A stretch of DNA of 6,070 nucleotides from Candidatus Thorarchaeota archaeon (GTDB lineage: Archaea > Asgardarchaeota > Thorarchaeia > Thorarchaeales > Thorarchaeaceae): the NCBI GenBank assembly GCA_003345555.1, contig PRDJ01000071.1, forward strand, positions 1-6,070, in the 5' to 3' direction. Both the position numbers and the translations under genes were made by a program. Below, in pieces: positions 1,626-5,956 of the stretch. Under the pieces are notes generated by a model. The model was not told the DNA's origin. It worked only from the letters and a program-made list of their open reading frames with translations, and did no database searches. Every line of letters starts with the position of its first letter. Within the stretch, counting starts at the first letter, position 1.

Positions 1626-1644
1626 GCCAGTCTGACATCTTGGC
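1626..1644 (+). promoter_or_regulatory. Candidate operator, copy 1 (GCCA-gtctgacatct-TGGC)
   Basis: 4-bp inverted arms with an 11-nt spacer, directly after the TATA-like box. Matches 4333-4351 at 12 of 19 positions. Confidence 0.35.
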
Positions 1645-1657
1645 CCTTGAACCGGCC

Positions 1658-2128
1658 ATGACAACTGTCCAGCAGTCCTTTGAAAGACTCGTTTCTCTCG
1701 CGATAGAAAGAGAGACAGAGACATATGAGTTCTATATGCAAGCCGCGAAGCGAGCCGAACTCTCATCGTCTGCGAAGCTACTGAAAGAACTCTCCGAACA
1801 GGAAGTGGGGCATCGAAAGAAGCTGGAAGCTGCATTCAAACAAGGTGTGTGTGGAACCTTTGTATGCAAGAGTGTAGCAGAGTTCAAGAAAATGGACCTT
1901 GACAGATATCTTGCTGAGGTACCACTGACACCTTCCTCATCACCTCAGGACGTACTGATTTTCGCTATCAAGAAGGAGGAGGCGGCACACGACTTCTATA
2001 AGACCCTTTCAGAACTGACCGCAGATCCATCAAACAAAGTAGTCTTCGAAACACTTGCAGGCGAAGAACTGAAGCACAAGCAGAGGCTTCAAGATCTCTA
2101 CGATGAGAAGATTCAGCAGTGGATGTGA
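1658..2128 (+). CDS. Ferritin-like di-iron protein of the rubrerythrin family, without a rubredoxin domain (~156 aa)
   Basis: Duplicated E...ExxH pattern (numbering from the ORF-track TTG at 1640): AIERE25..FY32..E55VGH58 and AIKKE113..FY120..E143LKH146. The ATG at 1658 is preferred over TTG 1640 because of the TATA position. There is no C-terminal CxxC...CxxC domain. Confidence 0.92.
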   Translation: MTTVQQSFERLVSLAIERETETYEFYMQAAKRAELSSSAKLLKELSEQEVGHRKKLEAAFKQGVCGTFVCKSVAEFKKMDLDRYLAEVPLTPSSSPQDVLIFAIKKEEAAHDFYKTLSELTADPSNKVVFETLAGEELKHKQRLQDLYDEKIQQWM

Positions 2129-2193: not shown

Positions 2194-3474
2194 CTAGTCT
2201 CTGTGGAGGTGAGGGGCGGCTATGAATGTCAGACCCCGCTTCGTCAGCTCCTCTGCCGTTCTGTTGACTGCTCTATGCTTGTCCATGTAGTTCTGAGTCA
2301 CCAGCGGCATTTCACCCTTCTGCTCAATTTCGTTCTTCTCCCTGAAATAGTCCAATATGTCGCTCGGATGAGAACGAGTGGAATCTATTTCGGGTACCCC
2401 GCCTTCGTGTTTCGCACTGATGTTCTTCACATGATTAGCAAGCTCCAGTAGCTGTGGGAGTCTGTCGTAAGGCTGACGTACGATGCTCTTGTATGTCTCA
2501 GTTATGTGATGTTCAATACGTACTACGTCTTCGAAGCCGAATTTCTTGCGGACATAGGCAGCTAGCTCTATCGTCTCGCTATTCACGCTATTTGAGAGAT
2601 TGAATCCTATCAGAGGAGTCGTACCATCGTCCCTACTGAATAGCTTGGCTGTCATCATTGTCCATAGGCATGAGAAGGGATTGTCGTTGCCCGTGAAGAC
2701 AGAGATTTTGAATTCCATATCAATGCCTAGCTTGTGCATGAGGTACGCAGCTAGAATGCTCCCGTTATTTACGTTGAGAACTTGCTTCACACCATAAGCA
2801 GTGTAATACTGAAGGTACTCGTCAGCCCATTTCAGGGGATACTCATTGGGCATACCTACACCACCGAAATAGCCCGTGATTGTCTCAGGGCCGCCCAAGT
2901 GAACATTCGCGGGAGCTCCATCGGGCCCCGGCAAGGTTCCCTTTGTATCCAGAGTCTCCACGTAAGAAGACCCCACGATCTGCATTGCGGCGGCGAAAGC
3001 AATAACATCGTCATCAGCTGTCTGCTCTTTCATGTTGCGAACACGTATGAAACGTCCAGGCATCAGCTCTCGATGGGCAATTGCCTCGCGTGCCTCTTCA
3101 ATGACCCAAGAGAAGTATTGACACGCGCTTATTTCCAGGGTCACGGCAAAGCTTTCGTCGAAGGCCATGGAGTCGGCCTTGTTGCCAAGCACCTTGCGGC
3201 GGTACTCGGGAATCGTGATGAAAGCACCGTCATCGCGCTGCTTTTCCAACCACCGCAGATCCCTAATAAGTGGGGACCTCTTCGATTCTAGTCTTGCGAT
3301 TAGCACATCCAGCTTGCGTGCTTCCTTCGCTCGTCGGTTTATTTCGTCGGGTCCACCATACTTCTCTATGAGATCGAGTATGCCATTGACAAGCGGGTTA
3401 TTCACTTCAAGCAAGAAATCGTTTATTGCACTCAGTCTCTTGGAATCAATTCTCAGCTTCTTTCTGTCTGTCAT
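2194..3474 (-). CDS. Uncharacterised 426-aa protein: helical N-terminal ~110 aa plus a predicted (beta/alpha)8 barrel, possibly U32-like
   Basis: A long ORF that tiles between its neighbours, with an ATG start and a weak upstream GAAGGT. There are eight short hydrophobic strands, each followed by an amphipathic helix. No function can be assigned from the sequence. Confidence 0.85.
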   Translation of the reverse strand: MTDRKKLRIDSKRLSAINDFLLEVNNPLVNGILDLIEKYGGPDEINRRAKEARKLDVLIARLESKRSPLIRDLRWLEKQRDDGAFITIPEYRRKVLGNKADSMAFDESFAVTLEISACQYFSWVIEEAREAIAHRELMPGRFIRVRNMKEQTADDDVIAFAAAMQIVGSSYVETLDTKGTLPGPDGAPANVHLGGPETITGYFGGVGMPNEYPLKWADEYLQYYTAYGVKQVLNVNNGSILAAYLMHKLGIDMEFKISVFTGNDNPFSCLWTMMTAKLFSRDDGTTPLIGFNLSNSVNSETIELAAYVRKKFGFEDVVRIEHHITETYKSIVRQPYDRLPQLLELANHVKNISAKHEGGVPEIDSTRSHPSDILDYFREKNEIEQKGEMPLVTQNYMDKHRAVNRTAEELTKRGLTFIAAPHLHRD

Positions 3475-3536: not shown

Positions 3537-3542
3537 GATAAA
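3537..3542 (-). promoter_or_regulatory. Weak TATA-like element (TTTATC) upstream of the 426-aa gene
   Basis: Minus strand cagaatcg-TTTATC-tgg, about 62 nt before the ATG at 3474. Confidence 0.3.
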
Positions 3543-3587: not shown

Positions 3588-4124
3588 TCACCCAAGTTGT
3601 CTAAGGTGGTCTCTAAGAACGGGACCAACGGCAGCGGCAACGAGAACACCGACAGTGACCTGTATTGAGTTGACACCCACAAGTTCGAGCAGGGCTGGAC
3701 CAATTCCAAGCATTAACAGCCAAGTCTCGCCTACGAAGTACCCTGTGAGCATTACAACTGCACCGCATACCAATGCGAGAGCGTCTCTAGCTCGCAATCT
3801 CTTGCTTGGCTCTTTGCTGCGGCTGACCAGAGCAATAACTAGCCCCTCACAGCCCTTGACTATGAGAGTGATCGGTGCATACTGAGGTGCCACAACAGCA
3901 TCGACCATTGCAGAACCAACTCCGCCGACAAAGAATGCTCCCGCCGGACCTAACATGAGCCCGCTGGTCATTACAACAGTGTCGCCAATATTTAGATAGC
4001 CACTCGTTGTCGGAAATGGAATCACCAAGACTGCAGTGACTGCTGTCGTCAACGCAGTTAGTACTCCTATGAGGGCAATGTAGAACACCGGATTCTGCTT
4101 TTCCGGAGCTGAGTACTCTTCCAT
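3588..4124 (-). CDS. ECF transporter S (substrate-binding) component, COG4720/HmpT-PdxU2-like group; substrate unknown
   Basis: 178 aa, about six hydrophobic segments. Family motifs: IPFP..SGYLNIGD, GGVGSAMVD, YAPITLIVKGCEG, plus an AxxxA in helix 1 (ALTTA). ATG start with GTGAGGA (4134-4140) upstream. Confidence 0.92.
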   Translation of the reverse strand: MEEYSAPEKQNPVFYIALIGVLTALTTAVTAVLVIPFPTTSGYLNIGDTVVMTSGLMLGPAGAFFVGGVGSAMVDAVVAPQYAPITLIVKGCEGLVIALVSRSKEPSKRLRARDALALVCGAVVMLTGYFVGETWLLMLGIGPALLELVGVNSIQVTVGVLVAAAVGPVLRDHLRQLG

Positions 4125-5359: not shown

Positions 5360-5956
5360 CTATGCCCTCAATATCCAGCTGACCAATTCAGCTGTCATGG
5401 GGTTCTCCTTCATGAATTCATCGCGATAAGCCCTGTTCTTGAAGTCCAGCCAGATGTTCTGGAACCCGGCGTCGAATCCCACGATTCTCACAGCTGATTC
5501 TATGGGTTTTGGCCGAAACGCTGCAATTGATAGAATGAACGATGCAATTGCTAAGATCACTACGCCATACACCCAAGCATCACTTGTTTTCCCCAACCAT
5601 AGGTTGCTACCTAGAGTCAGAAGAGCAAATGTGAGTGCGACTATGGAAAAACCGTCAGCAAGCATACAGAGCATCTTGTAGCGACAGTAATCTTCGTCTG
5701 AATACAGGTGGTCCTCGCACACAGGAATCAATAGTGTTCTTGTTTCAGGAAGAGAGAGTCCCGTCTGCCTCCTGAGAGCTGGGTTATACGACGGGTCCCA
5801 GATAGGTCGTAGATACTGTCTCCTTCCGGGTGCCACAGTAACCCGAGTAAGATGCAGGGCTGCAGCTCCGCACACAGGGCATTTCTTGGGGAATCTAATC
5901 CTATCAACCGCAACCCGGACTACCGGTTCATTGAATACTTCTCTTCGCGTACTCAC
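5360..5956 (-). CDS. Hypothetical membrane protein with a split CxxC...CxxH putative zinc site and two TM helices, 198 aa
   Basis: GTG start with GAGGT (5963-5967) 6 nt upstream. C26-P-V-C29 and C80-E-D-H83; hydrophobic segments at ~95-121 and ~127-147; C-terminal FKNRAYRDEFMKEN. Confidence 0.85.
   Translation of the reverse strand: MSTRREVFNEPVVRVAVDRIRFPKKCPVCGAAALHLTRVTVAPGRRQYLRPIWDPSYNPALRRQTGLSLPETRTLLIPVCEDHLYSDEDYCRYKMLCMLADGFSIVALTFALLTLGSNLWLGKTSDAWVYGVVILAIASFILSIAAFRPKPIESAVRIVGFDAGFQNIWLDFKNRAYRDEFMKENPMTAELVSWILRA

Follow-up and report, generated by a model that had tools for sequence, protein, structure and literature searches.

The 426-residue protein described here is a soluble enzyme from a Candidatus Thorarchaeota archaeon that belongs to an undescribed family of TIM-barrel proteins. 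Its gene, which we refer to as the barrel gene, is firmly tied by genomic context to one-carbon-linked 2-oxo-acid metabolism, the function itself being read from that context only. The gene lies on the minus strand of a 6,070-nucleotide stretch of DNA, hereafter the window, which is one entire contig (G000:C71) of a 2.28-Mb genome that is 93% complete. It is a genuine gene that runs uninterrupted through 426 codons (2194-3474), and its top homologues cover 100% of its length at 75-89% identity (E 1e-259 to 1e-222), the closest named ones being from Candidatus Thorarchaeota. A first-pass annotation made from the sequence had taken the protein for an orphan TIM barrel resembling the U32 family without its iron-sulfur (Fe-S) cysteine cluster.

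An undescribed family of TIM-barrel proteins

We modelled the protein with AlphaFold2 from an alignment of 40 sequences, extending down to 39% identity, and assigned its strands by DSSP. The model has a mean pLDDT of 91.9 and a pTM of 0.91, and predicts the two domains listed here together with the motifs that they contain:

2194..3474 (including the stop codon), minus strand: gene for the 426-aa protein (P0001), from the list of open reading frames (ORFs) and the translation, with full-length homologues at E values down to 1e-259
3169..3474, minus strand: N-terminal all-helical domain of seven helices, residues 1-102, from AlphaFold2/DSSP (block pLDDT 91-98)
2197..3168, minus strand: residues 103-426, a (beta/alpha)8 TIM barrel plus a C-terminal helix and an additional strand, from models and structure searches
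2845..2946, minus strand: Gly-rich loop after strand 3, residues 177-210, TKGT...N-V-H-LGGP-T-I-T-G-Y-F-G-G-V-G-x-P-N, from alignment and model
2707..2709, minus strand: Lys256 codon in strand 5 (254-257), invariant in 40 sequences
2506..2514, minus strand: E321-H322-H323 codons in strand 7, candidate metal or acid-base residues, E321 and H323 invariant
2404..2412, minus strand: K355-H356-E357 codons, located where strand 8 ends, all three invariant and candidates for a metal or acid-base role

The second domain is modelled as a (beta/alpha)8 TIM barrel whose strands 1-8 occupy residues 106-118, 141-144, 170-173, 231-232, 254-257, 288-292, 319-325 and 352-356. Each strand is trailed by one or two helices, and a long C-terminal helix and a short strand (415-419) end the chain. 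The AlphaFold2 model, Foldseek and VIA-align agree on this fold, which had been proposed in the first-pass annotation. The helical N-terminus of ~110 residues described there corresponds to the seven modelled helices of residues 1-102, and each of its eight strand-helix units has its strand placed correctly to within a few residues.

The barrel domain holds 52 of the 57 residues that are invariant in the alignment; the helical domain is conserved in length and holds only five. Taking alignment and model together, the invariant residues are located at the C-terminal ends of the strands and in the ensuing loops. Specifically, E114 and S116 of strand 1, R141 and R146 of strand 2, N234 of strand 4, K256 and S258 of strand 5, N292 of strand 6, R319, E321 and H323 of strand 7, and K355, H356 and E357 of strand 8 are invariant, and E173 and D176 of strand 3 as well as N236 of strand 4 are conserved in at least 90% of the 40 sequences. 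The polar residues that had been singled out on first reading (E114, R146, E173/D176, K256, E321, H323, K355, H356 and E357) are thus invariant or nearly so, with the exception of R144, where the invariant arginine is R141. E321, H323, H356 and E357 would lie near each other, going solely by their place at the C-terminal ends of strands 7 and 8, which are adjacent. The Gly-rich loop following strand 3, which had also been recognised, is highly conserved, with N190, H192, G201, G204, G205, G207, P209 and N210 invariant, and carries a 5-residue insertion in the Thor/Bathy/Heimdall copies. It is the sole low-confidence part of the model (pLDDT 54-58), as expected for a mobile lid, and is a candidate for either such a lid or a phosphate- or carboxylate-binding loop. 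The suggestion of an undescribed branch of barrel enzymes is therefore upheld, with alignment and model placing invariant Glu, His and Lys residues on the predicted catalytic face.

The proposed relationship to U32 fared differently. Fe-S dependent members of that family, such as RlhA, TrhP, UbiU and UbiV, have a conserved cysteine cluster for a 4Fe-4S centre. The barrel protein has only two cysteines and no such cluster, as had been noted, and neither cysteine is conserved (C118 is present in 20 and C269 in 14 of the 40 sequences), which excludes an Fe-S centre. That the protein is instead a U32 relative without Fe-S cysteines that uses a His/Glu metal site, for example in O2-independent hydroxylation, is very improbable. 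PF01136 had no match at E<=10 in the protein or in 40 family members and no match at all in the window's own genome, and a profile-profile comparison of the barrel family with 11 Asgard U32 proteins by hhalign gave a probability of 0.1%. The line-up with the U32 core motif was unsupported in every search, and U32 did not emerge as the top match in a flat list of structural matches, taking rank 29 in VIA-align with the barrel-only model. Moreover, genomes G008 and G040 carry a U32 gene and a barrel gene separately, and no locus has a ubiquinone, rRNA or tRNA hydroxylation context that could support a role as hydroxylation factor. U32 (Mk0906, RlhA, TrhP, UbiU/UbiV) thus differs from the barrel family in profile, in conserved cysteines and in gene context, and we reject kinship at the sequence level on the blank PF01136 search, the hhalign result and the separate genes in shared genomes.

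No other known family was recovered. Sequence searches of Pfam, NCBIfam and PDB with the single protein, with the 40-sequence profile and with each of the 40 members gave chance-level matches only, the ESM Atlas gave no usable match for the whole protein or the barrel alone, and a search of the literature found no description of the barrel family, nor of a PanB-containing sugar-acid route. Foldseek against PDB returned weak barrel matches only (E 6e-5 and worse, TM 0.30-0.37), in which class II aldolases and ketose epimerases come first, followed by BKACE and glutamate mutase E. The exhaustive VIA-align search produced a flat list of CutC (12.1), a de novo designed TIM barrel (12.1), U32 Mk0906 (11.6), BKACE (11.5), glutamate mutase E (11.4) and IspG (11.4). 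All of the Foldseek matches listed and the VIA-align top 50 are TIM barrels or TIM-barrel-containing enzymes. As no natural family outscores a designed, idealised barrel, the matches speak for the fold alone. Two further candidates were rejected. Sequence-level kinship with pterin-binding barrels (PF00809, represented by DHPS and MeTr) had no Pfam match and an hhalign probability of 0.3% against a profile of nine domains from five genomes. The protein is also not an ApbA ketopantoate reductase, being a predicted TIM barrel without a PF02558 match.

Far from being an orphan, the protein has at least 8000 homologue clusters at 90% identity in a word-indexed search in which all scored candidates were significant. 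Among these listed clusters there is no Pfam domain on record, and the source name is always 'hypothetical protein'. An exhaustive HMMER search against 50%-identity representatives found few full-length clusters, down to 39% identity, the remainder being fragments. Few full-length clusters at 50% together with at least 8000 at 90% indicates that the family is large yet tightly conserved. A scan with one genome per species found carriers in more than 584 species genomes. The listed archaeal carriers comprise Thor-, Loki/Prometh-, Heimdall-, Odin- and Hodarchaeota, Bathyarchaeia and Thermoplasmata, and the listed bacterial carriers comprise Anaerolineae and other Chloroflexota, Bipolaricaulota, Thermotogae and Deltaproteobacteria; cyanobacterial metagenome-assembled genomes are also among the source names of homologues. 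The gene is present in 103 of 201 sampled Asgard genomes with a distribution that is patchy by family (41/43 in the window's own family, 0/19 in family f12), and in 18 of 201 Chloroflexota genomes. Archaeal and bacterial copies share 60-66% identity, and the most divergent branch (P0131), at 39% identity, has kept every invariant residue.

Gene neighbourhoods in archaea and bacteria

We analysed context with clustered ORFs from about 130 loci of many phyla. Across these phyla the barrel gene is coupled to enzymes whose aldol-type chemistry uses a pterin-bound one-carbon unit and takes place at C3 of 2-oxo acids. Loki-, Heimdall- and Odinarchaeota have as the next gene, 8-33 nt downstream on the same strand, one for a 495-aa fusion (aldolase::Fae) that joins a class I pyruvate aldolase of the DHDPS family to a formaldehyde-activating enzyme, with scores above the TIGR00674 and TIGR03126 cut-offs, respectively. 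Bathyarchaeia have this fusion gene as the adjacent gene upstream, in divergent orientation, and overall it adjoins the barrel gene in 43 of ~100 loci. Two Asgard families without the fusion, as well as Thermoplasmata, have the barrel gene at the head of an operon with a class I/II aminotransferase, a homoserine dehydrogenase (over the NF004912 cut-off) and a tungsten-type aldehyde:ferredoxin oxidoreductase (AFOR), and part of this set is found in single Hodarchaeota and Bathyarchaeia loci. As side observations, in 20 bathyarchaeial loci (L042:4341-5084 and relatives) a convergent gene shortly downstream of the barrel gene encodes a 248-aa protein that matches no Pfam or NCBIfam model, often with an 85-aa ORF after it (12 loci), and a TrmI/GCD14-like methyltransferase gene comes after aldolase::Fae in most such loci.

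Aspartate-semialdehyde dehydrogenase (TIGR00978) was not found in four of the five carrier genomes tested (G000, G133, G130 and G205), with matches in all 14 control genomes, and in three of these four (G133, G130 and G205) a homoserine dehydrogenase is encoded beside the barrel gene. This hints that homoserine and aspartate semialdehyde are handled in an unusual way, although auxotrophy or incompleteness could also account for it.

The bacterial partner is PanB, which is encoded in 20 of 29 bacterial loci, usually by the gene directly upstream, read in the same direction and 9-120 nt away. The PanB encoded at these loci is a dedicated paralogue. The Anaerolineae genome G202 has two panB copies, one linked to the barrel gene and one residing beside an ApbA ketopantoate reductase gene, and in a maximum-likelihood tree the linked PanBs form clades of their own (100/100 support), apart from the canonical G202 copy and from Asgard PanBs. 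An apparent second copy in the Bipolaricaulota genome G201 is doubtful, as it lies on a 3.3-kb contig and groups within the linked clade. Separate ApbA genes are present in all five carrier genomes tested. We also considered that archaeal carriers lack PanB and that aldolase::Fae replaces it, an idea that proved to be a small-sample artefact: ordinary PanB is encoded in 150 of 201 Asgard genomes, including 38 of 43 from the window's own family, and aldolase::Fae is therefore not simply a PanB substitute. Beside these loci it can be noted that in three bacterial loci (L099:5201-6421 of Bipolaricaulota and relatives) panB and the barrel gene come after a Maf-like gene and a gene for a 407-aa protein without family match, and that two Bipolaricaulota loci have a convergent homocysteine S-methyltransferase-domain gene downstream.

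The divergent P0131 branch is found on human-gut metagenome contigs. Its cluster (L154:210-14412) encodes a xylose-isomerase-like barrel (PF01261, on a divergent gene), PanB (over the TIGR00222 cut-off), a Liv-type ABC importer, the barrel protein, an IlvD-type dihydroxy-acid dehydratase (over the TIGR00110 cut-off), a metallo-beta-lactamase (MBL)-fold hydrolase, DhaK, DhaL and an IclR regulator. This looks like a catabolic operon of the sugar-acid type, for which a hydroxymethyl-branched sugar acid is a guess at the substrate. Finally, a single Logan contig encodes a 759-aa protein (P0391) in which a full barrel protein is preceded by a distant domain of the DHDPS family that shares 24% identity with the aldolase part of aldolase::Fae. 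This could be a true fusion or the result of a lost stop codon, and as a single case it is too thin to weigh heavily.

Thorarchaeota, the lineage of the window, have a neighbourhood of their own, which in the window consists of:

3588..4124, minus strand: energy-coupling factor (ECF) transporter S component (PF07155, E 1.2e-28), upstream neighbour on the same strand as the barrel gene
1640..2128, plus strand: rubrerythrin/ferritin-like protein (PF02915, E 9e-15), convergent and downstream of the barrel gene

The S component gene is directly upstream on the same strand in 24 loci and the rubrerythrin-like gene is adjacent and convergent in 25, all of them Thor-type, with both arrangements confined to Thorarchaeota and the latter absent from the other lineages searched. 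In the window 113 nt separate the S component gene from the barrel gene, and this gap contains a TTTAT element (3538-3542, minus strand) ~65 nt upstream of the barrel start codon. At the level of consensus only, this may be the barrel gene's own archaeal promoter, as opposed to co-transcription with the S component gene.

A proposed function and its alternatives

The reading that we put forward, tentatively and at somewhat less than an even chance, is that the barrel protein is a probably metal-dependent enzyme that acts on a 4-hydroxy-2-oxo acid, or on its direct precursor, in a one-carbon-linked keto-acid pathway. With PanB or aldolase::Fae as partner in some lineages and aminotransferase, homoserine dehydrogenase and AFOR in others, a 4-hydroxy-2-oxo acid is the simplest common intermediate. 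The simplest candidate would be 4-hydroxy-2-oxobutanoate, and a hydroxymethyl-branched analogue is also possible. In the active site the arginines would hold the carboxylate groups of a small hydroxy/oxo-carboxylate, a divalent metal would probably be held by Glu and His residues of strands 7-8, and such a Glu/His site, together with Lys, would serve enolisation-type chemistry. The enzyme could thereby make the 4-hydroxy-2-oxo acid from an imported precursor, isomerise it or otherwise convert it, with hydro-lyase, isomerase and lyase as candidate activities. The partner would then split this acid to, or build it from, a 2-oxo acid such as pyruvate and methylene-tetrahydrofolate (methylene-THF) or its tetrahydromethanopterin (H4MPT) counterpart, PanB using methylene-THF and aldolase::Fae exchanging formaldehyde with H4MPT. 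In lineages without an aldolase partner, 4-hydroxy-2-oxobutanoate would be transaminated to homoserine and oxidised via aspartate semialdehyde to aspartate by the aminotransferase, the homoserine dehydrogenase and AFOR. Such partner chemistry is not far-fetched, since in P. putida PanB gave partial 4-hydroxy-2-oxobutanoate aldolase function in vivo (bioRxiv 10.1101/2025.02.17.638773).

We favour a catabolic direction, in which the barrel enzyme would act early, after uptake. This leaning is based on the IclR gene of the gut cluster, on importer genes that are directly upstream in two unrelated lineages, and on downstream routes that give pyruvate, reduced ferredoxin and C1 units. A bolder version, which we regard as speculative and on balance doubtful, is that barrel protein and partner form a natural, widespread pathway of anaerobes that moves the hydroxymethyl carbons of a 4-hydroxy-2-oxo acid directly to THF or H4MPT as methylene, with a barrel reaction of a type not yet assigned to any family. 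The acid would be 4-hydroxy-2-oxobutanoate or a doubly hydroxymethylated analogue, for example from an apionate-type branched sugar acid.

Several points weigh against the proposal of an enzyme of 4-hydroxy-2-oxo acids. The structure searches yielded no family-level neighbour, and the chemistry is therefore inferred from gene context alone. Co-occurrence with aldolase::Fae is not strict, as Asgard families f12 and f13 have the fusion without the barrel gene and families f5 and f22 the barrel gene without the fusion, which led us to reject strict co-occurrence. In the window's own lineage the barrel gene is beside the S component and rubrerythrin-like genes, with the fusion on another contig; in the window genome that contig (C39:50346-53234, or L106:8347-11235) carries two tandem DHDPS-type aldolase::Fae genes of 467 and 482 aa followed by an M20-family peptidase gene. 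The IlvD-PanB pair of the gut cluster is equally readable as consecutive steps of pantoate synthesis. Finally, both the direction of flux and the choice of substrate among 4-hydroxy-2-oxobutanoate, ketopantoate and a derivative of a branched sugar acid are guesswork.

The best placed of the alternatives, although unlikely, is that the barrel protein is itself the C-C lyase. As a new aldolase of a metal-dependent (class II-like) kind it would cleave some larger sugar acid, either branched or of the 2-keto-3-deoxy type, after which PanB or aldolase::Fae would take the remaining hydroxymethyl carbon. Class II fructose-bisphosphate aldolases and related metal aldolases are indeed the best Foldseek matches, and the gut cluster combines IlvD, a lactonase-like MBL protein and DhaK/DhaL with PanB as the only other candidate C-C lyase. 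These structural matches are, however, weak (E 6e-5 to 1e-3, TM 0.30-0.35) and not separable from those to other TIM barrels. Neither the three-His Zn pattern of class II aldolases nor the HxH of BKACE on an early strand is seen among the invariant residues, and two lyases in a two-gene module of PanB and barrel protein would be less economical than one.

An enzyme of the pantoate pathway, either an alternative ketopantoate reductase or another ketopantoate or pantoate step after PanB, is a shade less probable again. PanB is the commonest bacterial neighbour, IlvD and PanB of the gut cluster are consecutive steps toward ketopantoate, and the Thorarchaeota neighbour is a vitamin-type ECF S component, all of which this alternative would accommodate. 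It is countered by the ApbA-type ketopantoate reductase in 5/5 carrier genomes tested and by G202, where a canonical panB beside ApbA exists as well as the linked one. An ordinary PanB accompanies the fusion in most Asgard genomes, the fold has no resemblance to nucleotide-binding families, and the aminotransferase, homoserine dehydrogenase and AFOR context does not fit.

Quite improbable is salvage of a vitamin or cofactor, with the barrel protein acting on a compound imported by the adjacent S component. The 24 Thor-type loci with this gene directly upstream on the same strand would suit such a role, as would a weak folate-family ECF S match of a relative of the window's S component, which would go with the pterin-dependent partners found elsewhere. 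This folate-family match is, however, far under the cut-off (26.6 bits versus 60), the linkage is limited to one lineage, and the barrel protein has no similarity to pterin-binding proteins by hhalign. A role in the oxidative-stress response, to which the convergent rubrerythrin-like gene and the nearby desulfoferrodoxin gene of the window could point, is scarcely credible given that this association occurs in one lineage only, that neighbours elsewhere are keto-acid or one-carbon enzymes, and that a convergent orientation implies no co-transcription.

The remaining genes of the window comprise the 3' part of a seryl-tRNA synthetase gene, a PEBP-family gene, that desulfoferrodoxin-type superoxide reductase gene and two unassigned ORFs. 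A 198-aa ORF (5360-5956, minus strand) has an N-terminal CxxC...C motif with a weak rubredoxin-like zinc-ribbon match and hydrophobic stretches, and it forms a conserved cluster in 11 loci, all but one in a Thor-type neighbourhood; it fell into no assignable family.

Related systems and significance

Among the closest known systems are the BKACE/DUF849 beta-keto-acid cleavage enzymes (Kce; PDB 3c6c, 3chv, 3lot and 2y7d) and the CutC family (PDB 4r9x, 1twd and 2bdq). The Zn ligands of BKACE (PF05853), as seen in the structure of Kce, are a His-x-His motif and a Glu. The xylose-isomerase-like barrels of PF01261 (ketose 3-epimerases, UxaE and C-glycoside deglycosidases) are recurrent weak structural matches. 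Their Glu/Asp/His/Glu metal site, which handles sugar-like substrates, resembles the invariant E321/H323/H356/E357 of the barrel family. There is no sequence match between the two, and the gut cluster encodes a genuine PF01261 protein separately.

Other likenesses concern position and partners. The barrel gene takes the place next to panB that is often held by a reductase such as PanE/ApbA, but its product differs from that enzyme in fold and in the missing PF02558 match, and carriers keep ApbA genes of their own. Archaeal Fae-Hps and the engineered homoserine cycle, which uses a 4-hydroxy-2-oxobutanoate aldolase plus a transaminase, match in their chemistry the partners of the barrel gene (aldolase::Fae, aminotransferase and homoserine dehydrogenase). 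This likeness is one of partners, as no component resembles the barrel protein.

With 60-66% identity retained between Asgard and Chloroflexota or Bipolaricaulota copies, thousands of metagenomic lineages and no Pfam, NCBIfam or PDB relative, this family is a clear blind spot in how sediment and gut anaerobes are annotated for carbon metabolism. It lends itself directly to testing, as its members are soluble and lack conserved cysteines, a confident model is available, and the gut homologue may come from a culturable organism. Its link to keto-acid lyases that transfer one-carbon units suggests an undescribed connection between central keto acids and the THF/H4MPT pools, which bears on the metabolic reconstruction of Asgard archaea and Bathyarchaeia. 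If true, the pathway of barrel protein and partner would be a natural counterpart of engineered homoserine-cycle chemistry, and the family may offer a natural template for synthetic assimilation of formaldehyde or C1 units.

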